Positions 1 to 12,106 of a stretch of 64,000 nucleotides of DNA are shown here, in pieces. The notes under the pieces were generated by a model. It made no database searches. It had not been told where the DNA came from and saw only the letters and a list, made by a program, of their open reading frames with translations. Each line of letters opens with the position of its first letter. Position 1 is the first letter of the stretch. Position numbers and translations under genes: made by a program. The stretch comes from Sulfuricurvum sp. (lineage in GTDB: Bacteria; Campylobacterota; Campylobacteria; Campylobacterales; Sulfurimonadaceae): assembly GCA_041661705.1 (NCBI GenBank), contig JBAZTZ010000009.1, forward strand, positions 9,050-73,049, in the 5' to 3' direction.

Positions 1-1692
1 ATTTTCATCAGGATTATCACTTTTACGGATAAAACTGAGGCAATTGTGTTGATAATCTTGATCGTCAATCCACTCAAACCCCTCCCGTTTTTCATCGTAG
101 AAATGCAAAGCACGCTCATTTCTATACAAATGATTAAGATCAGACACCATCCTTCTTAATCCTTTATTCAACGGATTTTCCAACAGATGCCAATCAAGGG
201 AACGCTCATAATTCCATTCTGCATATTGAGCAATTTCTCCCCCCATAAAGAGAAGTTTTTTCCCAGGGTGCGCCATCATGTAGGCGTATAGGGTCCGTAA
301 ATGTGCAAACTTTTGGTTGTTGTCCCCTGGCATTTTGTTGATGAGGGAACCTTTCATATGAACTACCTCATCATGACTCAAGGGGAGCATAAAGTTTTCA
401 TCAAACCCATACCACATACTAAAAGTAAGCTGTTGGTGATGATGCTGTCGGTGAATAGGATCATAGCTCATATATTTGAGCGAATCGTGCATCCACCCCA
501 TATTCCATTTAAATCCAAATCCTAATCCTCCGACATCAACGGGACGCGTTACCATAGGGTAGGCAGTAGACTCTTCGGCGATCATAACAATATCGGGAAA
601 TTCACCATAAAGACTAACATTAAGTTTTTTCAAAAACTCCACGGCTTCAAGATTTTCATTCCCTCCATTAGCATTAGGAATCCACTCCCCCTCTTTTCGG
701 GCATAATCCAAATGGAGCATCGACGCAACCCCATCGACACGAATTCCATCAATATGATATTTATCGACCCAAAACATCGCCGATGAGATCAAGAAGGATT
801 GAACCTCAGCACGTCCGTAGTTGAAAATAATACTTCCCCACTCGGGATGAAATCCTTGACGGGGATCATCATGCTCGTACAACGCCGTACCGTCAAAGTT
901 AATCAATCCGTGCATATCAACGGCGAAATGAGAGGGAACCCAATCCATAATAACCCCAATCCCCTGCGCATGAAGAGCATCAATCAGAAACATCAAATCC
1001 TGCGGTGTTCCAAAACGAGATGTTGTAGAAAAATATCCTACTACCTGATACCCCCATGAGCCATCGTACGGATACTCAGTAAGAGGCATAAACTCAACAT
1101 GAGTATAGTTCATCTCTTTGAGATAGATGGTAAGCTCAGAGGCAAGTTCTCGATAGGTGAGAGGGCGATTCTCTTCTATGTTGTATCTCCATGAGCCAAG
1201 GTGCATCTCATAGACGCTAATAGGAGCATTGTGTGCATTGTGGAGATGACGAACTTTCATCCACGCTTCATCGCTCCACTCATACCCCTCCAACGTCCAC
1301 ACTTTCGATGCTGATTTAGGCGGTTGCTCGGCATAAAATCCGAGTGGGTCACTTTTGTCGTGGATAATATTATGGTATTTGGAAATAATATGGTATTTGT
1401 AGGTAATCTTCTCCTCTACCCCCACAATAAACCCTTCCCATATTCCAGAATCATCTTCTCGCAGTTTCAGAGGATGGCTTTGGGTATCGTAGTCATTAAA
1501 ATCACCTCGGACACTGACGTATGCGGCATTAGGTGCCCAAACAGCGAAATAAACCCCATCTTTTCCCTCATAACGCATACTATGAGCCCCAAGCTTGTCG
1601 TAGAGTTTGGAATGATTACCTTGCTTAAATAAATAAATATCCAACTCACTTAAACGTGAAATCTCATAGTTCATAAGGTGATGATGATTCAT
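1..1692 (-). CDS. glgB: 1,4-alpha-glucan branching enzyme GlgB (GH13), 3' end runs off the left edge of the window
   Basis: Translated by hand because it is not in the ORF track (no stop in the window). ATG at 1692 overlaps the glgA TGA (ATGA). Reads MNHHHLMNYEISRLSELDIYLFKQGNHSKLYDKLGAH...FAVWAPNA...YEMHLGSW...SWGYQ...DWVPSHF...HIDGIRVDGVASML...AEEST...KWNMGWMHD...LPLSHDEVVH, the conserved GH13 branching-enzyme motifs. Confidence 0.97.
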   Translation of the reverse strand, partial: MNHHHLMNYEISRLSELDIYLFKQGNHSKLYDKLGAHSMRYEGKDGVYFAVWAPNAAYVSVRGDFNDYDTQSHPLKLREDDSGIWEGFIVGVEEKITYKYHIISKYHNIIHDKSDPLGFYAEQPPKSASKVWTLEGYEWSDEAWMKVRHLHNAHNAPISVYEMHLGSWRYNIEENRPLTYRELASELTIYLKEMNYTHVEFMPLTEYPYDGSWGYQVVGYFSTTSRFGTPQDLMFLIDALHAQGIGVIMDWVPSHFAVDMHGLINFDGTALYEHDDPRQGFHPEWGSIIFNYGRAEVQSFLISSAMFWVDKYHIDGIRVDGVASMLHLDYARKEGEWIPNANGGNENLEAVEFLKKLNVSLYGEFPDIVMIAEESTAYPMVTRPVDVGGLGFGFKWNMGWMHDSLKYMSYDPIHRQHHHQQLTFSMWYGFDENFMLPLSHDEVVHMKGSLINKMPGDNNQKFAHLRTLYAYMMAHPGKKLLFMGGEIAQYAEWNYERSLDWHLLENPLNKGLRRMVSDLNHLYRNERALHFYDEKREGFEWIDDQDYQHNCLSFIRKSDNPDEN

Positions 1693-3167
1693 TTCCCTTT
1701 TCTCCCCTCTTTGATTGTGTAATAAAGGGCTTCGTATTCTTGAGCTGCGCCTATCCAATCATATCGTTGGGACATAGCATTGGTTTGCATTTGTTTAAAC
1801 CCTTTAGGATCATTGTACCATGTATGTACTGCCCACCCTACGGTGTTGACCAAAGCATCAGAAGACGCATCATAGAATTTAAATCCAGTACCATGAAGTG
1901 AATCGTTATGATAATTCTCGATTGTATCATCCAACCCCCCCGTCGCACGAACAATAGGGAGGGTTCCGTAACGAAGACTATAAATTTGATTGAGTCCACA
2001 CGGTTCAAACAAGGATGGCATCAAAAATAAATCTGCCCCTGCCTCAATTTGATGGGCTAGATCGTTACGGTACCCGATAAAACAACCAAATTTTTCGGGA
2101 TGCTTGGTCGCAATATCGTTAAAATAATGTTCCGCCCACTTCTCCCCTGCCCCTAGCATGACAATTTGAATATCCATTTCCAGTAATTTCCAAATCGCAT
2201 GCGAAAGAAGTTCTATCCCTTTTTGCTCCGCCAATCTCCCTACCAAACCAATCAACGGAACTTCATTACGCTCTGGAAGATTAAACAGTTTTTGAAGTGC
2301 TGTTTTACAAACTTCTTTGCCCCTCATATCCTCAACATCAAATTGTTGCGCAATAAAAGGATCAATAGCAGGGCTCCACTCCTCATAATCAACCCCATTG
2401 AGTATCCCGTGCAGTTTAGCCGATTCAACCTCCAACAATGTATTGAGTCCACATCCAAACTCTACAGTACGAATCTCTTGGGCATATTTACGGCTAACAG
2501 TACTTATCATATCAGCGTGAACAATTCCCCCCTTAAGGAGATTGATTCCATCATATTCTTCAAGTTCATACGCATTAAAATGATCCCAGCTTACATCCAA
2601 AACATCCATAGCCGCTTTGGAAAATCTTCCTTGATGTTCTAGGTTATGAATACTCAGGAGGGAACCCGTATGAGAGAAATCACTGTCATACGCATAATGG
2701 GTATTGAGCATAAGAGGCAGTGCTGCAGTGTGCCAATCATTCGCATGAATAACATCGGGATGAAAATGGAGTTTTTTTGCCAATTGCATCACCGCGCGGG
2801 AAAAAAAGATAAAACGTGTATCATTGTCAGGATAAGAAAAACCATCCTCTTCATAAAGCCCTGCACGACCAAAAAACTCTTCATGCTCGATAAAATAGAT
2901 GGGGACATCACTATTGGGAAGTTTCCCTTCATACACTCCCGCCCACAGTTCCCCCATAGTTCCCATGGGAATACCTAAAGACCCTTCTAGTGGTTTTAAA
3001 TCATATTTTTCTTTATCTATTCCGTAATAACGGGGAATGACAACGCGTACATCATGACCCAGCGCACGCAATGCTTTTGGCAGTGCACCCACGACATCAG
3101 CAAGGCCCCCTGTTTTAGCGAACGGGACGACTTCGGAGGCGGCGATTAAAATATTGAGTTTATTCAT
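1689..3167 (-). CDS. glgA: Glycogen synthase (GT5), copy 1
   Basis: KTGGLADV ADP-glucose-binding motif, HANDWH, IHNLEHQG, GILNGVD, MPSLFEPCGLNQ, GGLDDT. Confidence 0.96.
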   Translation of the reverse strand: MNKLNILIAASEVVPFAKTGGLADVVGALPKALRALGHDVRVVIPRYYGIDKEKYDLKPLEGSLGIPMGTMGELWAGVYEGKLPNSDVPIYFIEHEEFFGRAGLYEEDGFSYPDNDTRFIFFSRAVMQLAKKLHFHPDVIHANDWHTAALPLMLNTHYAYDSDFSHTGSLLSIHNLEHQGRFSKAAMDVLDVSWDHFNAYELEEYDGINLLKGGIVHADMISTVSRKYAQEIRTVEFGCGLNTLLEVESAKLHGILNGVDYEEWSPAIDPFIAQQFDVEDMRGKEVCKTALQKLFNLPERNEVPLIGLVGRLAEQKGIELLSHAIWKLLEMDIQIVMLGAGEKWAEHYFNDIATKHPEKFGCFIGYRNDLAHQIEAGADLFLMPSLFEPCGLNQIYSLRYGTLPIVRATGGLDDTIENYHNDSLHGTGFKFYDASSDALVNTVGWAVHTWYNDPKGFKQMQTNAMSQRYDWIGAAQEYEALYYTIKEGRKGK

Positions 3168-4573
3168 ACTATTGTTTCTCCAATTAAAAGGCTATCGTAA
3201 AGAGTAGCGTAGAGTTTTGAACTCTGATCCCAAGAGAAATCACACTGCATATTGTGATTGGATATTGACTCAAAAAGCTTTTTATCACCGTAAAGTTCTA
3301 CCGATTTTCGTACCGCCAAAAGCAATGAGCGAGGTGTCGGGGTAAAAAATACGACCCCATATCCATCACTACTCTCAGAATCGTACGTTTCAAACCGTTT
3401 TACCGTATCTACCAATCCCCCAACACGATGAACAATAGGAATCGTTCCGTATACAAATGCAATCATTTGGTTAAGCCCACACGGCTCGAACAAGGAAGGC
3501 ATCAAAAGAAAATCAGCAGCTGCATACATTTGATGCGCCAATGTTTCATCATAACTAGGGGTCAACCGAATATTAGGATGAAGCTTTATCATTTCACTCA
3601 GTTTCTCATAGTATTGCTCTTCTCCCTCACCCAAAAGGGCGATATTACAGTTCATAGCGGCAATTTTTGGGAGAGTTTCGATTAGTAAATCTACCCCTTT
3701 TTGACTCACAAAACGCCCAATAAAGACAAAAAGTGGTTTAGTCACCCCTTTGAGTCCCAATTGTTTTAGCAAACTAGTTTTTGAGGGTTTTTTCGCCTTA
3801 CTATTACTATAAGGGGCAACCAATGAAGCATCAAGACCGTTGAGAATTCCTGTAAGTTTATGGCGATGACACTGCAAAAAACCTTCCAATCCACACCCAA
3901 ATTCAGAGGTTAAAATCTCTTTTGCATACGTTGGACTAACCGTTGTGATACTGTTCGCGTAGGTAATACCCGCTTTCATAAAATTAACTTTTCCGTAAAA
4001 TTCGAGACTTTCGTGGGTAAAGTAGGACTCTGAAATCCCCAACTCTTTTAAAACAGTGGGTTCAAACACCCCTTGATAGGCAAGATTATGAATCGTATAA
4101 AGAGTTTTAGTCGTAATTTCCAGATCATCATGAACAAGCAACGCGACCAATGCACATTGCCAATCATTAAGATGGACAATATCGTAATTTTCACCCCTCA
4201 GTAATGCTGTAATCGTATATGAGAAGAGTCCAAACCGAAGTGCATTATCCTCATATCCCTCTTGGGGTGTTCCATACAAGAACTCTCTTTCACAAAGAAT
4301 CGGCGAATAGACAAAACGATACGTGATCCCCTCATACGTACATCCATACATCTCTACTGTATAGTCATCATCACCCATAGTGAGCGTAAAAGGATCTCCT
4401 AGAGAAACTATGCCATATTCTTCACGTGGTATGGAACGATACAGTGGCGTGATAACCTCGATATCATAATTGTCTTTTAACGCCCTTGGCAAACTATACG
4501 CTACATCTGCCAATCCACCTGTTTTTGTAAAGGGGTAAACTTCACTTGCAGCAAATAAGATTTTTTTAGACAC
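3164..4573 (-). CDS. glgA: Glycogen synthase (GT5), copy 2, about 11 aa shorter after the NGLD motif
   Basis: KTGGLADV, HLNDWQ, IHNLAYQG, MPSLFEPCGLNQ, GGLVDT. ATGA overlap with copy 1. Confidence 0.9.
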   Translation of the reverse strand: MSKKILFAASEVYPFTKTGGLADVAYSLPRALKDNYDIEVITPLYRSIPREEYGIVSLGDPFTLTMGDDDYTVEMYGCTYEGITYRFVYSPILCEREFLYGTPQEGYEDNALRFGLFSYTITALLRGENYDIVHLNDWQCALVALLVHDDLEITTKTLYTIHNLAYQGVFEPTVLKELGISESYFTHESLEFYGKVNFMKAGITYANSITTVSPTYAKEILTSEFGCGLEGFLQCHRHKLTGILNGLDASLVAPYSNSKAKKPSKTSLLKQLGLKGVTKPLFVFIGRFVSQKGVDLLIETLPKIAAMNCNIALLGEGEEQYYEKLSEMIKLHPNIRLTPSYDETLAHQMYAAADFLLMPSLFEPCGLNQMIAFVYGTIPIVHRVGGLVDTVKRFETYDSESSDGYGVVFFTPTPRSLLLAVRKSVELYGDKKLFESISNHNMQCDFSWDQSSKLYATLYDSLLIGETIV

Positions 4574-5570
4574 GACTTTCTCCTCGTAAACGTTTTGCAG
4601 CCATTTCTGGAGCTACGGGATTGATCATCATTTGGGTACTCACCTCAAATCCTCCCTGACGATAAATACGAGGGATGATTCGAATCATTAGACGGTGAGC
4701 TTGATATGCACAAATATTATCACCTAAAGGGGGAGTAGATACCGATAAATTGAACGAAAATTCGCCTAGTTCTCTTTTTAATCGCTCTATTACGGAGCAA
4801 AGTAATGTTCCCAAATTATCAATGTGAGTATCACTAAGGGTATCAATTTGACCGACATAGTTTTGAGAGCTAATCATCACCTCGAACGGATAACTACTAG
4901 CATACGGGCAAAAAGCACTAAATTCTCCGCTGCGTTCTATCATTCGTACGGAGGTCTCTTCTTCATCTCGTACAACTGCCTCCATTAGAGAACGGTTATT
5001 ATGTTGATAATATTTACGTTTTTGACGGCATAAACTTCGCTGCAATTTAGGAATCATAGGAAGCCCAATGAGTTGAGTATGAGAATGATCCATCGTCGAA
5101 CCTGCATCATAACCTTCATTTTTGAAGAGAGATATATAAAGGATTCGCCGATCCCGTCGTAAATCTTCAACCCGCGAACGAAGTGTTTTGAGCCATCGTA
5201 CCATCTCATCATGACTCCACTCACTCATCGAACGAGTATGACGAGGAGTATCAATAATTACTTCGTGTGCACCAAAGCCATCCCAATGATCGAAACTTCC
5301 CTCATGATGAGCATGAGGGGCTTCTATAGCGACTGCTTTATAGAGATTGGGGACGACGCGCGTATACCACCCTTTTTGATTCACAACCGTATCGGATTTA
5401 CGTATCGCAAAAATCTCTTTCGGTGTCATCGATTCATTCCCCTCACAAAAAGGGCACACTTCATTATTTTTGGTCAAAACCACTGCTTTAATGAAATCAG
5501 GACGCTGAAGTCTTTCAGGGGCAATAATGACATGCGTATCACTCAAACGGTCATAACGTATTTCAGACAT
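4566..5570 (-). CDS. GalT/HIT-fold hexose-1-phosphate nucleotidyltransferase (GalT-like, possibly ADP-glucose phosphorylase type)
   Basis: CPFC zinc motif, GAHEVIIDTPRH and HSHTQ nucleophile motif (5073-5087). Start reassigned to the ATG at 5570 (MSEIRYD), which overlaps the end of the upstream GH57 gene. Confidence 0.88.
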   Translation of the reverse strand: MSEIRYDRLSDTHVIIAPERLQRPDFIKAVVLTKNNEVCPFCEGNESMTPKEIFAIRKSDTVVNQKGWYTRVVPNLYKAVAIEAPHAHHEGSFDHWDGFGAHEVIIDTPRHTRSMSEWSHDEMVRWLKTLRSRVEDLRRDRRILYISLFKNEGYDAGSTMDHSHTQLIGLPMIPKLQRSLCRQKRKYYQHNNRSLMEAVVRDEEETSVRMIERSGEFSAFCPYASSYPFEVMISSQNYVGQIDTLSDTHIDNLGTLLCSVIERLKRELGEFSFNLSVSTPPLGDNICAYQAHRLMIRIIPRIYRQGGFEVSTQMMINPVAPEMAAKRLRGESRV

Positions 5571-7593
5571 CCGTAATCTCCAATACTCCTTGAAGTTCAA
5601 GTGCCATTTTAAATTCAAATACAAAAGCGAAACTAACCCCTTGAACACTCAAATCAAAACCAGACTCACTTTGAGAGAGAGTTTGAAGTTGAAAATAATG
5701 AACAGCACAAGGATGATCGAAACGAATAGCAATCTTTTTCTTTAAAACCGTATCAATAATTTCTAATGATCCTACGGAATCAATAGTATGCGATTTTCCG
5801 AGAAGCTTGCCATTGATACATAAAGAATCATAGTCAGCAAAGTGAAAGTTGTGTTCTAAAATATAGGTAAATACTCCATCTGCTTCAGTCTCGACACGAA
5901 TAGAAAACTCTATCCCATTAGAATTAAATAAAAAACTTTTTTCTAAACGGGTATTGATTTTTTCAGGTAAATAGATTCCGCCATCACGTGCGAATGCGAT
6001 GCGTCCTTCATCTTGGGATAATTCAAAAGGTTGATTGGCAAAATCGCCATACTCTCGAAACGTACATTGACGGAAGTTTTCACCATTAAATCCAGTATCA
6101 CTAATATGATCGATAAACGAGTTTTTCATATACCAATCATAAATAAGGGCATCTCGAAGAGATGGATCAATACTCATTGAAGTGTGATGAATCGTATCAA
6201 TCCCCTCTTCCATAGGAATAGCATTCTCTTCTTGAGGCGCAAATAATTTCTGATGATACGCTTCTTTACGTCGTGTAAGGGTATTTTGATAGTTGAAACA
6301 CTGATCACGTACATCCAATTCAACAAGTTGCCCACCCAACGCACTATCAAAACGCCAAATTAATTCCGGTGTCACAGCCTTAATTTTTAGGTATCCGTCA
6401 AGTTCATTGCTATCGGTTGCAATTGCCGTTTTAGTACCGTAGCGAATATTCTCACACTCAATAAGATACGTATAGGCATTGTCTCTTAGGTTGGGGAGAT
6501 AAAGTCCTCCAAAAACGCCGTGCCATAATGGATCATTGGTCTGAAGCTTGTATAAAAAAGTTTGAAAATCTCCCTCATTGGCATGAAAGGCACGTGAAAG
6601 TTCAAGCATTCGTTTATGTAAACGATTACTTTCAGGGTATTTAACAAAAAAATTCTTCCAAATTCCCCCCTTCAGAAACTTTACACCATAATCCTCATAC
6701 CGCTGTAGCCCCATCTCATTTTTGAGTGTCTCCAAATGAAGCGCATCATCTGCTCGCAAGCTCCACTCCCCCATTTCGTAATAAGAGACATTCGGAAGAT
6801 AGGCGATTCCTCGAGAACGTTCAGATTTGAAATACTCACCATAATGACGTGTTTCAATCGACTTATCCGCCAAAACAGCTCGAACAAATTTTTCTAGCCA
6901 TTTTTTCTCATAAACCCATTCATTTGTTCCCGGCCACATTCCGAATTTTTCAGCATCATCAAAAATAATTGCCGCTGAATCGTTCTCGCGGTTAAAAGAT
7001 TTGATAGCTTTAAGTGCACTTTCAACATTTAAAAACGGCAACGCATAGCGAAGCTTTTGACTTATAGGAAAAAGCCCCATAGGGACTCCCCCCTCTTCAC
7101 TCATATAATAACCATCCAAATTCTCTTGATCAAACCCAGCGCATTGAAAATGGTAATCGTCCATAACGGTATAGCGAATCCCTGCTGTGTGAAGATCGGG
7201 AATAAGAGCCGATTCCCATACTCGCTCTGTAAGCCATAGGCCTTGAGGTTTTTGATTAAAATTCTTTTCGATGGAGGTATTGAGGTGTTGAATTTGTCCA
7301 ATACGATCTTGTGAGGGAATCACACTCAAAATGGGTTCATAATACCCTGCACTAAAAAATTCAATTGTTCCACTCTGTGCCAATGTAACGATTTTACCGT
7401 ACAGTTCAGGGCGTAATTCTTCAATTCTTTCCATCAACCAACCACTGCAATGGACGGAAAATCGAAACGATGGATAACGGCTCATCACCTCAAAAAAAGG
7501 CTCATAGCAACTTGTAATAGCAAGTTCAATAACCCATTCGAAATTATCGACGGGCTGGTGCATATGGATTCCAAATAACAATGACGTTTTCAT
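5563..7593 (-). CDS. GH57 alpha-amylase / 4-alpha-glucanotransferase
   Basis: HMHQP, WLTERVW (nucleophile Glu), DDAEKFG (acid/base Asp), WHGVFGGLYLP and a C-terminal beta-sandwich-type region. Start at ATG 7593 (MKTSLLFG) behind an AGGAG RBS. Confidence 0.9.
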   Translation of the reverse strand: MKTSLLFGIHMHQPVDNFEWVIELAITSCYEPFFEVMSRYPSFRFSVHCSGWLMERIEELRPELYGKIVTLAQSGTIEFFSAGYYEPILSVIPSQDRIGQIQHLNTSIEKNFNQKPQGLWLTERVWESALIPDLHTAGIRYTVMDDYHFQCAGFDQENLDGYYMSEEGGVPMGLFPISQKLRYALPFLNVESALKAIKSFNRENDSAAIIFDDAEKFGMWPGTNEWVYEKKWLEKFVRAVLADKSIETRHYGEYFKSERSRGIAYLPNVSYYEMGEWSLRADDALHLETLKNEMGLQRYEDYGVKFLKGGIWKNFFVKYPESNRLHKRMLELSRAFHANEGDFQTFLYKLQTNDPLWHGVFGGLYLPNLRDNAYTYLIECENIRYGTKTAIATDSNELDGYLKIKAVTPELIWRFDSALGGQLVELDVRDQCFNYQNTLTRRKEAYHQKLFAPQEENAIPMEEGIDTIHHTSMSIDPSLRDALIYDWYMKNSFIDHISDTGFNGENFRQCTFREYGDFANQPFELSQDEGRIAFARDGGIYLPEKINTRLEKSFLFNSNGIEFSIRVETEADGVFTYILEHNFHFADYDSLCINGKLLGKSHTIDSVGSLEIIDTVLKKKIAIRFDHPCAVHYFQLQTLSQSESGFDLSVQGVSFAFVFEFKMALELQGVLEITDV

Positions 7594-7601
7594 AAGCTCT
7601 C

Positions 7602-9599
7602 CTAAATAAACCAATTGGTACTAAATGTTTCGTCTAACTCAACCAAAAGAGATCCGTTCCCCGGTAACAACTGAATACTCTTACCGTCTTGGCGTAATTC
7701 AAATCGAAGATGAACACTCACATTTGTAGTAAAATTTTCTCTTGAAAGAGAAAATTCCAGACGATTTCCACTAAGGAGCGGTGTAATTGAAAAGCGTTCT
7801 TGTGTCTCTTCAATCATTACAACAACAAAAGGGGTTTGCAAAGCACTAAAGTCTCCTTCAAAGGCTACATATAGTGACACATTATCAAAGCCATAATAAA
7901 GGATTTCAACGACTCCACGAACTTTGTCCATTGTCGAAAACATCAATCTCTCATCAACTGTGCCACACCCAACCCAACTAAAAAATGAATCTCCATTTTC
8001 ACCCAGTTTTGGAGAAATCATATTTTGAGGCTTCGTCCAGAATGACTTTGGACTATCCATTGATATAATTGGATCAAAAAGATTAGAAGGAATATCTAAA
8101 TTCAGCAAACGATAAATTTGGATTAAATGTTCACGAAATAACAAATCAAACTCCGCAGCGAAATCGGTTCTGTGATCTTCACCATACCACCAAAACCAAT
8201 CACTGCATTCGGACGCTAGAATATGATGAAGAATCTCTTCTTTGAGCTCTTCACTCATTTCACCTTCATAATTTTCAACATCACTTCGTACTTGAAAAAT
8301 TAGTTCCCACGCCCTATTCTTCTCAAAATGTCCAACCCATGTATCAAATGTACCGTGTATCCAACTCCCAGCAGCCAGATGTTCTAATACTCCCACTTCT
8401 TTTAACGAGGCTACTTCATCCAACGTGAGGGTTGAACACCACGATAAAGAAGAGAGAGACGCATACAATGAATTAAAAAAATCCAATCCGTTGTTAGGAT
8501 AAAATTCCCATGCGTTCTCACCATCAACGATGACAAAAACTGTCGGATTATTCTCATTCATCTCTATATGCTTAAGCTCATTTATAAAATCATTGCTCGC
8601 ATCCGCCCCACTAATATGACGATACTCAAACCCAATCAAATCACTTAAATGATGATCCCGAAAGGCAATTGTCAATCCATCATAAAGATAGGGTTTATAG
8701 CGTAATGAAGGGGTGTGATTATTGAGCGATTTATATAAGATAGCTTCATCCGTAGCAATCCATTTTATAGCATGCTCTTTGTAGATTGCAACACTCTTTT
8801 CATCTACCGCCCCCTCAGCAGGCCAAAAACCGTTTGGTTTACACCCAAATGTTTTTTCATATAATGCAATAGAACGCTTCACATGCTCTTGCGCATCTTC
8901 ATACAAAGATCGGGCACCATTAGGTAAAGGTGTCGCTGCATTGGCACGTTGAGTGTTTTGCATATCAACAAGTAAGGGGAGTATTGGATGGAAATAAGGC
9001 GTTGTCGAAACCGAAACAACCCCTTTTTCTTGAAGTTCTTTGTAAAAAGGGAGAATCTCTTGTACAAAACTGCTCAGTGTCTCAAGCAGTGCCGTTTTAT
9101 CCTCTTGTGTATATTTCTTCTTTTTCGCCAAAAAGGCTTTAATATATAAATTGTAAGTACGAAGATAGTTTCCACACCATGCAAGTAGAAAAACTACTTC
9201 CAAATCAATAAGTTCATGATCCGTAAAAGAAGTTTGATAATACAATGCGGCATAACGCTCTATTGGACGCACCAATGTCTCATACTGCGTTGAAGTACAG
9301 ATTTTGATAAGCCATTGCTTTTGAGAATCGCTCAAAAGAGAAGGGTGTTGCGCCCACAGAGAGAGAAAATAATCATATTTCAAGGGCTCTCGATAAAGCT
9401 GTAATTGTTCAATGAGAGAAGCACTAAGATTAAACGTTGCTTTGAGCCCCGAGTGCTGACTTAGCAACCACGGCATCTCGTAATAATCTTTGATCGCGTG
9501 CAAAAATACCCACGGCATTTGCATCACCCCATCACTTCCTCGATAATCAGGCTGGTGCATATGCCAAAAAAAACATAGATTAAGTGAGGGTGTACTCAT
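7602..9599 (-). CDS. GH57 glycoside hydrolase (amylopullulanase/alpha-amylase-like)
   Basis: WHMHQP, PYFHPILPLL, FWPAEGAV, DGENAWE, SDWFWW motifs. Start at ATG 9599 (MSTPS), overlapping the TAA of the upstream gene. Confidence 0.9.
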   Translation of the reverse strand: MSTPSLNLCFFWHMHQPDYRGSDGVMQMPWVFLHAIKDYYEMPWLLSQHSGLKATFNLSASLIEQLQLYREPLKYDYFLSLWAQHPSLLSDSQKQWLIKICTSTQYETLVRPIERYAALYYQTSFTDHELIDLEVVFLLAWCGNYLRTYNLYIKAFLAKKKKYTQEDKTALLETLSSFVQEILPFYKELQEKGVVSVSTTPYFHPILPLLVDMQNTQRANAATPLPNGARSLYEDAQEHVKRSIALYEKTFGCKPNGFWPAEGAVDEKSVAIYKEHAIKWIATDEAILYKSLNNHTPSLRYKPYLYDGLTIAFRDHHLSDLIGFEYRHISGADASNDFINELKHIEMNENNPTVFVIVDGENAWEFYPNNGLDFFNSLYASLSSLSWCSTLTLDEVASLKEVGVLEHLAAGSWIHGTFDTWVGHFEKNRAWELIFQVRSDVENYEGEMSEELKEEILHHILASECSDWFWWYGEDHRTDFAAEFDLLFREHLIQIYRLLNLDIPSNLFDPIISMDSPKSFWTKPQNMISPKLGENGDSFFSWVGCGTVDERLMFSTMDKVRGVVEILYYGFDNVSLYVAFEGDFSALQTPFVVVMIEETQERFSITPLLSGNRLEFSLSRENFTTNVSVHLRFELRQDGKSIQLLPGNGSLLVELDETFSTNWFI

Positions 9600-12106
9600 T
9601 ATGATTTTGACCACTCCGCGATTTTATCCATATATTGTTGAGCGTATTTCTCTCCATTACTATCTTGCTCGGCTTGAATGGTAAGATTAAGGTGATCGTT
9701 GTATTGATCAGGAAGCATTAAGACCCAATCAGTATCGTTAAACCAGATTTTCACCCCATCAAGTGTTGACGATTTTTTCCCCTTAGAATCTTCAAGGAAT
9801 TTACGCATCATTTTTCCTTTGAGTGCTTGTGAACACGGAATTTGATACGTATGGTAGAAAAAGTGGGGTAGATCGGCAATAAGCTTGGAAAGCTTGGTAT
9901 TATGATGAACAATCATCTCCAAAATTTTCAGCGTTGCGTACATTGAATCCCGATGAGTTGCGAATTCAATAAAGGCAAAGTTCCCCTCACCCGTCGCCAC
10001 CAAATCGTATTTTTTCATCTCTTCGGCTTTGAAGTTCGCGTAGGCTCCCCGTTCTATCTCCAAATGGTCAAAATAGACAATATCAGCAGCCCATGTCGGT
10101 AAGAAAACTCTTCGAATTTCCCCTTTTTCTTTTGCTTCCATATTTAATAAGCTCATAACGACATACAAAGCAGTTTGCTTACTAAGAATCACCCCATCAT
10201 CACACATTAGATCAAGTCGTTGTCCATGCGGGTAAATCATAAATCCAACATCCAAACCAAGCGCCTTAACAACAGCACTCATATCACCATGGGAACGTTT
10301 CACCAATGTGTTGATATTCGAAAGACGCTGTTCATCAGGATAGGCATTGAACATAATATTCTCCACACCCAAATCATTGAGTATCTCAGGGAAAATTTCG
10401 GATGCCATCCCGTGCATCATATCAACCGCAATACGGCAATCAAGACATTTAAAGCGATGCGATTCCAAAAGCTGTTTCATCCCATTCTGATAGCTTTGAT
10501 ACTCTTGCTTATGATGGGAAGGGTAAATCTGACCAATTCGTGAATAATCAACCCGTCTAAACGTCTCTTTAAAAAATGCTTTTTCCACTTTTTTAGCCAT
10601 ATCACTATTAATCCGAATCCCTTCGTGATTGTAAAAGGTGATAACGGTACTGGTGGGATCGTCAATCTTTTGGTGAAAATGGACACCAGCGGTATAACTA
10701 TCATGGAATGAGAGACTGCAACGCATAACCGCTGAAGAGATAGCATTATAATCAAGGACATCAACCCCTGCTGAAAGTAATCCTCCCAAAAATGCCCGTT
10801 TGAGCATACGAGAACTTTTATCGTAGCTTCGAGATACCACGACAGTAGAACCGACGGGAAGCTGTGCCCCAAATGCTTCGGCAAGTTTCGTTGCCATCTC
10901 ACAGGAGAGCTCAACATTGGATTTACCAATAACCATTCCATCTTCAAAAATGGAGTTCTTATATCGGCTTCCTAAAATAACGCTCCGACTAACAATGGCA
11001 GCATCTTCGATGACTTTGTAAGGCCAAATTGTGACATCTTTTTCTACTGTAACCAGTTGACCAATTTCACACCCTTCAGCCAAAATCATTCCCGATTTAG
11101 CCGTAACATTTTTCCCAATACTATTATTCGAGCAGATAACACATCCGTCTAATTTAGCATTTTTTCCAATTTCAACATTGTCCCAAATAACAGTGTTACT
11201 AATTTTTGATGAACTACCAATACTAACATTGTTGCCAATGACAACATTATTAAGTTTTGCCCCTTTTTTAATCGTTACATTGTTACCAATAACTACAATA
11301 CCAACGATTTCAATACTTTCATCATAAAGGTTATCATCTTCACAAATCAGCACACCATCAGGGTATTTAATTGCTTCTCCGGCTAACTGAAATTTAATTT
11401 TTCCCGCTAAGATATCTTCATAAACATCACGGTAACTCTCTGGATTACCAACATCACGCCAATAGCCTGACGCGTAACCTGCCATCAACTTTATTCCCTG
11501 ACGCATCAATAACGGAAAGAGATCTTTTGCAAAATCAAAATTCTCATTTTTAGGAATATAATCGAGGATTTCGGGTTCAATAATATAAATACCCGTGTTG
11601 ATTGTGTCACTGAACACTTCGCCCCAGCTTGGCTTTTCGAGGAACTTTTCAATCTCTCCCTCTTCATTGGCAATTACAACCCCAAATTCAAGGGGATTAT
11701 CAACGGAAGTGAGGGTTATCGTGAGTTTGGATTGTTTGCTAGCGTGATAATCAAAAATCTTTTGGAAATCAAAATCAGTTACCAAATCACCGCTGATAAT
11801 GATGAAGTTTTCATTTCCAATAACCTCTTGAGCTTTTTTAACCGCACCTGCTGTCCCATAATCATCATCTGGAACGATATAAGTAATACTTATGCCCCAA
11901 TCACTGCCATCTTTAAAATACTCTTTAATCACGTCAGGCTTAAAATAAAGCAAAATAATAAATTCTTTAATGCCTAAATCGCGTAAACTGACGATAGTAT
12001 GTTCCATCATCGGACGATTCATAATAGGCAACATAGGTTTAGGAATAGAGTTTGTAAGTGGCTGTATTCGTGTTCCGAATCCTCCTGCCATAACGACTGC
12101 TTTCAT
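9599..12106 (-). CDS. Sugar-phosphate nucleotidyltransferase + left-handed beta-helix + degenerate phosphohexomutase-like domain (mannose-1-P guanylyltransferase family)
   Basis: N-terminal MAGGFGTRIQPLT..PKP nucleotidyltransferase motif and hexapeptide repeats (IGNNVTIKKGAKL/IGNNVSIG). The C-terminal PMM-like region lacks the SHNP and DxDxD motifs. Confidence 0.88.
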   Translation of the reverse strand: MKAVVMAGGFGTRIQPLTNSIPKPMLPIMNRPMMEHTIVSLRDLGIKEFIILLYFKPDVIKEYFKDGSDWGISITYIVPDDDYGTAGAVKKAQEVIGNENFIIISGDLVTDFDFQKIFDYHASKQSKLTITLTSVDNPLEFGVVIANEEGEIEKFLEKPSWGEVFSDTINTGIYIIEPEILDYIPKNENFDFAKDLFPLLMRQGIKLMAGYASGYWRDVGNPESYRDVYEDILAGKIKFQLAGEAIKYPDGVLICEDDNLYDESIEIVGIVVIGNNVTIKKGAKLNNVVIGNNVSIGSSSKISNTVIWDNVEIGKNAKLDGCVICSNNSIGKNVTAKSGMILAEGCEIGQLVTVEKDVTIWPYKVIEDAAIVSRSVILGSRYKNSIFEDGMVIGKSNVELSCEMATKLAEAFGAQLPVGSTVVVSRSYDKSSRMLKRAFLGGLLSAGVDVLDYNAISSAVMRCSLSFHDSYTAGVHFHQKIDDPTSTVITFYNHEGIRINSDMAKKVEKAFFKETFRRVDYSRIGQIYPSHHKQEYQSYQNGMKQLLESHRFKCLDCRIAVDMMHGMASEIFPEILNDLGVENIMFNAYPDEQRLSNINTLVKRSHGDMSAVVKALGLDVGFMIYPHGQRLDLMCDDGVILSKQTALYVVMSLLNMEAKEKGEIRRVFLPTWAADIVYFDHLEIERGAYANFKAEEMKKYDLVATGEGNFAFIEFATHRDSMYATLKILEMIVHHNTKLSKLIADLPHFFYHTYQIPCSQALKGKMMRKFLEDSKGKKSSTLDGVKIWFNDTDWVLMLPDQYNDHLNLTIQAEQDSNGEKYAQQYMDKIAEWSKS

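Follow-up and report, generated by a model that had tools for sequence, protein, structure and literature searches.

What a relative of galactose-1-phosphate uridylyltransferase (GalT) does within a bacterial glycogen operon is the question raised by a 64,000-nucleotide stretch of a Sulfuricurvum sp. genome (the window). The gene concerned, at positions 4566 to 5570 on the minus strand, encodes a 334-amino acid, class I GalT-family protein with two HIT domains, recognized by the Pfam GalP_UDP_transf N- and C-terminal domain models, and stands fourth among eight closely spaced minus-strand genes, in an operon in which it is co-translated with glycoside hydrolase family 57 (GH57) enzymes and two glycogen synthases. 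The function that we favour, with moderate confidence and from sequence comparisons, is that of a reversible ADP-glucose:phosphate adenylyltransferase of the type represented by Arabidopsis At5g18200, which would buffer or drain the donor pool of the glycogen synthase GlgA. The enzyme is most likely not one of the Leloir pathway and probably not a substitute for GlgC.

The longest open reading frame that ends at 4566 begins with a GTG codon at 5648 and would encode 360 amino acids. The start was instead placed at the ATG at 5570 because approximately 120 of the closest homologues are 331–344 amino acids long with the N-terminus MSE(I/L)R and because the sequence GGAG lies 7 nucleotides upstream of this codon. 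The gene is overlapped at this start by 8 nucleotides of the upstream GH57 gene, which ends there (ATGTCTGA), and at its stop by 8 nucleotides of the first glycogen synthase gene, glgA1, which begins with GTG (GTGTCTAA). Overlap with glgA, as described in an earlier sequence-only reading of this DNA, was thereby confirmed at the level of the sequence.

At5g18200 was identified as an ADP-glucose phosphorylase rather than a GalT (PMC6329318) and phosphorolyses ADP-glucose with a Km of 7 µM (EC 2.7.7.36; PMC4136846), in agreement with what the sequence-only reading had stated about this enzyme. Of the solved structures compared with the window protein, At5g18200 gave 149 bits (E 1.6e-42) versus 68 for Pyrobaculum aerophilum GalT, 50 for E. 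coli GalT and 38 for human GALT. At5g18200, in turn, matched bacterial family members encoded next to glgA with 270–290 bits and the E. coli, human and P. aerophilum enzymes with 80, 51 and 112 bits, respectively. With E values below 1e-30, 1,199 clusters of the family were retrieved from 1.84 billion representative proteins. Fifteen positions (E46, E52, R71, G98, H102, E103, I106, R133, K150, A156, F217, A224, N274, F308 and N317 in the window protein) were conserved in at least 85% of the bacterial subfamily; the window protein and At5g18200 agreed at these positions (14 identical and one E/D), from which all three of the verified GalTs that were compared, those of E. coli, human and P. aerophilum, differed. 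The C-terminal sugar-site motif likewise reads GGFEVSTQMMINP in the window protein versus KFMVGYEMLAETQRD in GalT, and in place of the GalT hexose-site motif KFMVGYEML-x-x-x-QRD the window protein has RQGGFEVSTQMMINPVAPE, with G-(F/Y)-E as the only common core. Scores against the NCBIfam GalT models were 101.5 bits for NF008724, which has a cut-off of 448, and 76.9 for TIGR00209, which has a cut-off of 102.1. Every testable feature of the At5g18200 subfamily was present in the window protein and three defining features of Leloir GalT were absent.

The sequence-only reading had named a superfamily phylogeny as a check of its proposal that the enzyme is of the At5g18200 type. In a careful maximum-likelihood tree of 63 sequences, verified GalTs separated with 96/96 support from a side of the tree that contained the window protein and, among bacterial sequences, At5g18200; the Campylobacterota clade (100/98) was sister to a group (80/63) that included the Arabidopsis enzyme. 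An AlphaFold2 model of the window protein (pLDDT 89.5, pTM 0.90) was compared by Foldseek with solved structures, and ranks 1 to 6 were all chains of At5g18200 (E 9e-29 to 6e-27, TM-score 0.80–0.90), the ADP-glucose complex 2H39 included. The TM-score to the GalT structures from E. coli and human was about 0.8, and fold alone, as judged from the model, does not separate ADP-glucose phosphorylase from GalT activity, since scores of about 0.8 were noted with both.

Residues with catalytic, phosphate-binding, ribose-binding or zinc-binding roles were aligned column by column among the window protein and the E. coli, human, P. aerophilum and Arabidopsis enzymes. Common to the window protein, At5g18200 and the GalTs were R20, R23, C39, C42, N75, H111, N151, G157, H162, H164, Q166 and E309. 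The active-site stretch, FKNEGYDAGSTMDHSHTQLIGLP, spans residues 149–171 (5058–5126, minus strand) and contains the HSHxQ string reported from the sequence alone, as H162-S-H164-T-Q166 at 5073–5087; Q166, N151 and G157 in or near this string are conserved in the alignment. The predicted nucleophile is H164, equivalent to H186 of the Arabidopsis enzyme and H166 of the E. coli enzyme, and the predicted structural zinc site consists of C39, C42, H111 and H162, the two cysteines belonging to a CPFC knuckle (5445–5456, minus strand) that is followed by the subfamily-invariant E46. A motif of the HSHSQ type, attributed to At5g18200 in the sequence-only reading, appeared in the alignment as MSHSHSQ. 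The use made there of HSHxQ, as opposed to HPHxQ, to tell the enzyme from GalT did not hold, because subfamily members may have S, C, P, T or A as the middle residue. The counts were HSH 65 and HCH 53 among the 120 nearest homologues; HPH 63 (66 if sequences with a second HxHxQ match are counted) and HSH 31, followed by A, T, I, L, V and G, among 150 representative clusters; and HTH 36, HSH 26 and HPH 13 among 80 loci from many phyla. HSHxQ was ruled out as a subfamily signature on account of this free variation. In the C-terminal pseudo-HIT domain, the HWH of most members (HWHIEI) is replaced in the Campylobacterota clade by R-L-M or something similar, which in the window protein occurs within QAHRLMIRIIPR (4671–4706, residues 289–300 approximately). 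Because HWH is replaced, this clade lacks the second metal site of E. coli GalT.

The genomic surroundings also pointed away from galactose. In agreement with the sequence-only reading, galK and galE were both absent from the window; in the whole host genome, an assembly that is 99.8% complete and in which the gene under study is the only member of the GalT family, galK was not found, nor was galM in a tblastn search with E. coli GalM. A galE gene (56% identical to that of E. coli) is present on another contig, adjacent to galU (42%), the two together occupying C25:31461–33286. As these two genes lie side by side, production of UDP-galactose needs no GalT, and the pair is the likely source of UDP-galactose for surface polysaccharides in the absence of the Leloir pathway. 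It could nevertheless be proposed that the gene encodes a genuine Gal-1-P uridylyltransferase (UDP-glucose + Gal-1-P <-> UDP-galactose + Glc-1-P) that lies in a glycogen operon by chance, as Pfam and NCBIfam GalT models were matched, the HxHxQ motif, zinc site and phosphate-binding arginines are intact, the fold has a TM-score of about 0.8 to E. coli and human GalT, and the archaeal P. aerophilum enzyme, which was deposited as GalT, is likewise short and divergent. We regard this as very unlikely given the scores below both curated cut-offs, the lack of galK and galM in a genome where the galU-galE pair can supply UDP-galactose, the differences from three verified GalTs at the 15 subfamily positions and in the C-terminal sugar-site motif, the absence of a galK or galM neighbour from 80 related loci, and the absence of GalT activity from the closest characterized relative (PMC6329318). 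Close homologues were named "UTP--glucose-1-phosphate uridylyltransferase", which is the name of GalU, or "DUF4931 domain-containing protein" by NCBI, and GalT by UniRef and JGI. None of these names fits the evidence.

An association with glycogen synthesis was evident from the distribution of the gene. Related loci were collected from species-level genomes by a scan based on a 9-sequence alignment and the pattern GAHEVII[ED], of which the best 80 were retained; both the pattern and this cut bias the sample, in which Acidobacteriota are over-represented. The 80 loci were from Campylobacterota, Acidobacteriota, Planctomycetota (including anammox lineages), Nitrospinota, Nitrospirota, Omnitrophota, Zixibacteria, WOR-3, Calditrichota, Bacteroidota, Clostridia and Deltaproteobacteria. 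Within 10 kb of the GalT-like gene, glgA was present at 29 of the 80 loci, from at least 10 phyla and usually 0–130 nucleotides downstream, GH57 genes at 18, glgC or a fused nucleotidyltransferase gene at 11, GT35 genes at 7, and galK or galM at none. Genes for phosphofructokinase and phosphoglucose isomerase were further neighbours in other phyla (L060, L049). Fifty genomes that carried the GalT-like gene contained glgA above the cut-off in 43 cases, canonical glgC in 22 and galK in 5, and canonical glgC was absent from all nine Campylobacterota among them. The strongest association was noted among 201 high-quality Campylobacterota genomes, in which the GalT-like gene and glgA each occurred 24 times, 23 times together and once each alone, with neither gene in the remaining 176 (Fisher p = 6e-28). 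The genome with glgA alone was G213.

This association also bears on the idea that the enzyme is a GalT-branch HIT protein acting on an adenylyl donor other than a nucleotide sugar, either as an adenosine 5'-phosphosulfate (APS):phosphate adenylyltransferase (ADP-sulfurylase) or as a diadenosine tetraphosphate (Ap4A) phosphorylase. Both activities are included in the GalT branch of the HIT superfamily (bioRxiv 10.64898/2026.09.13.751320), and the host is from Campylobacterales, a group of sulfur oxidizers. Co-occurrence, however, was with glgA rather than with sulfur genes, the family is common in lineages without sulfur oxidation, the window protein gave no match to Ap4A_phos_N (PF19327), and Apa2 and Rv2613c were weak structural matches (TM-score 0.3–0.4, E 1e-4 to 1e-5). 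The idea is therefore considered extremely improbable. The proposal that the enzyme is of the At5g18200 type rather than a GalT agreed with the similarity scores, the 15 subfamily positions, the tree, the NCBIfam scores, the absence of galK, and both the linkage and the co-occurrence with glgA, the activity itself being a prediction.

Gene fusions and one exceptional genome indicated what the different contexts have in common. A single open reading frame of 872 amino acids joins a GH57 domain to the GalT-like domain in a complete Campylobacterota genome (G227; L093 6954–9572), within an operon that encodes, in order, a nucleotidyltransferase fusion, the GH57::GalT-like protein, GlgA, a protein of 271 amino acids, GT35, a protein of 181 amino acids and a GH57 branching enzyme. 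A GlgA::GalT-like fusion of 814 amino acids was present in the representative protein library. The one Campylobacterota genome of the 201 that carried the GalT-like gene without glgA (G121) has it between a gene for glucosyl-3-phosphoglycerate synthase (GpgS; 334 bits to the GpgS model) and that of a second, GpgS-like GT2 enzyme, in a cluster of the glucosylglycerate type (L094 5542–11305) that also holds a glycerate 2-kinase-like gene and one for an MPGP-family phosphatase. The GalT-like protein of this genome retains 13 of the 15 subfamily positions and has conservative changes at the other two; its zinc-site Cys, Cys and His are lost (replaced by S, E and K) and its catalytic residues are kept. 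Taken together, the glgA and GpgS contexts identify the common theme as a glucosyltransferase that consumes nucleoside diphosphate (NDP)-glucose, rather than glycogen as such or galactose. A broader and doubtful proposal is that enzymes of the At5g18200 type may be general, physically coupled partners of NDP-glucose-consuming glucosyltransferases such as GlgA and GpgS, with ADP acting catalytically, either through formation of ADP-glucose from ADP and Glc-1-P or through reversal of GlgA, such that no ATP would be needed for the transfer of glucosyl groups between Glc-1-P and glucan or glucosylglycerate.

By homology with characterized members of the superfamily, H164 would attack the alpha-phosphate of ADP-glucose, with release of glucose-1-phosphate (G1P) and formation of a covalent AMP-enzyme, and the AMP would then pass to orthophosphate (Pi) or to another molecule of glucose-1-phosphate. 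The net reaction would be ADP-glucose + Pi <-> ADP + Glc-1-P (EC 2.7.7.36), which would hold the donor pool of the synthase near equilibrium with G1P, ADP and Pi. The equilibrium ratio of Pi to G1P for glycogen phosphorylase is about 3.6 and cells hold Pi far above G1P. The At5g18200 reaction was reported to be reversible (McCoy 2006), with an equilibrium constant that reportedly favours ADP and G1P by about 5- to 40-fold. The reactions of GlgA and the GalT-like enzyme sum to that of glycogen phosphorylase, so net synthesis without ATP is unlikely and phosphorolysis is to be expected. At normal cellular ratios of Pi to G1P, the enzyme would then serve as a valve that conserves energy, in that unused ADP-glucose would be converted back to G1P and ADP and glycogen synthesis would be coupled to the status of phosphate and energy.

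These considerations settle differently the several parts of what had been proposed from the sequence alone. The interconversion of ADP-glucose and Pi with ADP and glucose-1-P stood, as a predicted activity that accords with kinship to At5g18200, whereas its basis in HSHxQ, the bypass of GlgC and nucleotide exchange did not. Exchange of nucleotides between NDP-sugars does not suit chemistry of the GalT type, in which one nucleoside monophosphate moves between phosphate acceptors and the sugar-1-phosphate (or Pi), not the base, is swapped. Supply of GlgA without GlgC is unlikely given that the operon has a nucleotidyltransferase of its own, that 22 of the 50 carrier genomes have canonical glgC, and that the overall conversion (G1P + glucan to glucan+1 + Pi) is uphill at the cellular ratio of Pi to G1P. 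Replacement of GlgC was accordingly rejected on genome counts and thermodynamics.

Operation of the enzyme in the opposite direction, or in a couple with GlgA in which ADP is catalytic, was also weighed. In one form, ADP and Glc-1-P would yield ADP-glucose and Pi and would feed GlgA without ATP; in the other, GlgA would run backwards (glucan + ADP to ADP-glucose) and the HIT enzyme would pull the reaction, the two enzymes together forming a glucan phosphorylase that is free of pyridoxal phosphate. Such schemes draw on the position of the gene next to a consumer rather than a producer of NDP-glucose, on the fusions with GlgA and GH57, on the reported reversibility of the At5g18200 reaction, and on the phosphatase downstream in the GpgS context, which could pull a route driven by G1P. 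The first form, however, amounts to the reverse of glycogen phosphorylase, which is uphill at textbook values of Pi/G1P, and the operon has a nucleotidyltransferase; the second form is left with no gap to fill by the GT35 alpha-glucan phosphorylase of the operon; and GlgC is present in about half of the carrier genomes. We consider these schemes quite unlikely in comparison with an enzyme that works toward phosphorolysis.

The nucleotide of the donor was considered with reference to the first gene of the operon (9599–12106, minus strand). Its 835-amino acid product consists, by Pfam and NCBIfam matches, of a sugar-1-phosphate nucleotidyltransferase with an LbH domain fused to a phosphohexomutase-like half, and is likely to be the NDP-glucose pyrophosphorylase of the operon. 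The host genome has no canonical glgC, the best match being this fused protein with 137 bits versus a cut-off of 425. Structures nearest to the nucleotidyltransferase half were GDP-mannose and UDP-glucose pyrophosphorylases (157–169 bits), as compared with 49 bits for GlgC. The mutase-like half (9599–10950) lacks the phosphoserine loop (GVHFHQKIDDP instead), the metal loop (MIYPHGQRL instead) and the phosphate loop, and is probably a regulatory or scaffold domain; two other phosphoglucomutase/phosphomannomutase genes are located elsewhere in the host genome. Nucleotidyltransferase fusions of approximately 830–857 amino acids recurred beside the GalT-like gene in Campylobacterota and were noted beside it once in a Syntrophomonadaceae metagenome-assembled genome, and a deltaproteobacterial metagenome-assembled genome with the GalT-like gene encoded an 847-amino acid fusion elsewhere.

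It is accordingly conceivable, if unlikely, that the chemistry is the same and the nucleotide another, the enzyme being a UDP-glucose or GDP-glucose phosphorylase, or one that exchanges Glc-1-P with NDP-glucose, matched to the product of the nucleotidyltransferase. Besides the 157–169 bits to GDP-mannose and UDP-glucose pyrophosphorylases, this reading is favoured by the absence of canonical glgC from every sampled Campylobacterota genome. GpgS enzymes, one of which accompanies the gene in the glucosylglycerate-type cluster, accept several NDP-glucoses. Use of UDP-glucose was proposed for GlgA of Pseudomonas (bioRxiv 10.1101/2020.10.23.351924). On the other side, both GlgA paralogs of the window pass TIGR02095, a model for synthases of the ADP-glucose type, the same gene pair stands beside canonical GlgC in other phyla, where the GalT-like gene, glgA and canonical glgC sometimes share a cluster, and agreement with the ADP-glucose enzyme extends to all 15 subfamily positions (14 identical, one E/D).

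Several points weigh against an At5g18200-type ADP-glucose phosphorylase as the function of the window protein. The activity of all bacterial members is predicted from homology, the window protein and At5g18200 are only 27–30% identical, and the Campylobacterota clade is a divergent branch. The exact placement of At5g18200 is weak, with local support of 62/35 and an approximately unbiased test p of 0.79 for a position as sister to all sampled bacterial sequences. Its position inside the bacterial group in a quick 131-sequence tree was distrusted, a constrained tree being 37.5 log-likelihood units better. The relevant donor could be GDP- or UDP-glucose, given that the nucleotidyltransferase of the operon is nearer to GDP-mannose and UDP-glucose pyrophosphorylases than to GlgC; as the donor nucleotide is not readable from sequence, the preference of the enzyme for adenine is a prediction. 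Campylobacterota counts are not phylogenetically independent, since they come from about 15 genera, and Acidobacteriota copies of the gene stand alone, among housekeeping genes without sugar-related neighbours. A constitutive drain on ADP-glucose that is co-expressed with the synthase also looks wasteful, which hints at regulation, channelling or another net direction, and the constant placement of the gene by a consuming transferase, together with the fusions, is not fully explained by a valve. It is because of this placement and these fusions that a coupled mechanism in which ADP cycles is kept under consideration.

The remaining genes of the operon are also on the minus strand. The second gene (7602–9614) encodes a GH57 enzyme (PF03065, 182 bits) and the third (5563–7614) another GH57 enzyme with middle and C-terminal domains of the 4-alpha-glucanotransferase type (PF03065, PF09094, PF09095). 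Downstream of the GalT-like gene, glgA1 (3164–4573) encodes a GT5 glycogen synthase that scored 470 bits against TIGR02095 (cut-off 328), and glgA2 (1689–3167) encodes a second GT5 synthase (546 bits) that is 36% identical to the first by tblastn. These are followed by glgB, for a GH13 branching enzyme (1–1692), which continues past the edge of the window, and by the last gene of the operon, just outside the window, which encodes a short GT35 alpha-glucan phosphorylase of 547 amino acids (TIGR02094, 442 bits). A phosphofructokinase gene converges on the latter in this region (C9:6050–8760 in the host genome). Tandem glgA paralogs of approximately 36% identity, as at 1689–4573 of the window, are both kept in several Campylobacterota genera, and others have one. 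Elsewhere, a gene for a Na/Pi cotransporter-PhoU protein directly follows the GalT-like gene in one deltaproteobacterial metagenome-assembled genome (L047 11127–12752), and two GalT-like paralogs occur in tandem in one from Omnitrophica (L080 8946–10001).

A literature search, with most subscription journals outside its scope, found no paper on a bacterial ADP-glucose phosphorylase, on linkage of a GalT-like gene to GlgA, or of relevance on DUF4921 or DUF4931. ADP-glucose phosphorylase activity itself is already known, and what is new is a putative bacterial member in a conserved glycogen context. Also new are the almost complete co-occurrence of the gene with glgA among Campylobacterota, its fusion with GH57, and the exceptional GpgS-linked locus, from which NDP-glucose emerges as the substrate that the contexts share. 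To our knowledge, the textbook bacterial pathway (GlgC, GlgA, GlgB, GlgP and GlgX) includes no ADP-glucose phosphorylase, and a step in which ADP cycles is also absent from it; the gene is conserved within the glycogen operons of Campylobacterota, Planctomycetota, Nitrospinota, Clostridia and other groups. Owing to the database labels, metabolic reconstructions wrongly attribute galactose metabolism to carriers of the gene. Were the predicted activity to be confirmed, the enzyme would provide substrate-level control, or a means of salvage, at the stage of the committed donor for glycogen synthesis, and its surroundings would provide a genomic context for the physiological role of the plant enzyme.

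Removal of a sugar-nucleotide donor for glycogen or glycans as a means to control or clean its pool has functional analogies in E. coli AspP, a Nudix ADP-sugar pyrophosphatase, and in animal GDPGP1, a HIT GDP-glucose phosphorylase. GDPGP1 is likewise phosphorolytic on a HIT scaffold, but belongs to another branch of that superfamily and acts on GDP-glucose, while AspP has an unrelated fold and hydrolyses its substrate to AMP and G1P with loss of the phosphoanhydride bond. We know of neither being encoded next to a glycogen synthase. With class I Leloir GalT (E. coli 1HXP/1GUP, human GALT 5IN3, P. aerophilum 6K5Z) the window protein shares the superfamily, a fold with a TM-score of about 0.8, the zinc knuckle, the equivalents of R20, R23, N75, N151 and E309, and, by prediction, a ping-pong mechanism that relies on the second His of HxHxQ. 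It differs from these enzymes in its 19–21% identity, in scores below the curated cut-offs, at 15 of 15 subfamily positions and in the hexose-site motif, and in having no galK or galM partner in its genome or at related loci. With At5g18200 (1Z84, 1ZWJ, 2H39) it shares the two-HIT-domain fold (TM-score 0.83/0.88–0.90), an alignment over the full length (E 1.6e-42), HxHxQ with Ser in the middle, the same zinc ligands, 14 identical and one conservative residue at the 15 subfamily positions, and the C-terminal motif GGFE-x-(S/G)T-x-x-x-INP-x-x-PE. In contrast with this cytosolic plant protein, to which it is 27–30% identical, the window protein is bacterial, belongs to a clade in which the HWH histidines of the C-terminal pseudo-HIT domain are gone (RLM in its own case), and is encoded inside a glycogen operon, by a gene translationally coupled to those for GH57 and GlgA.

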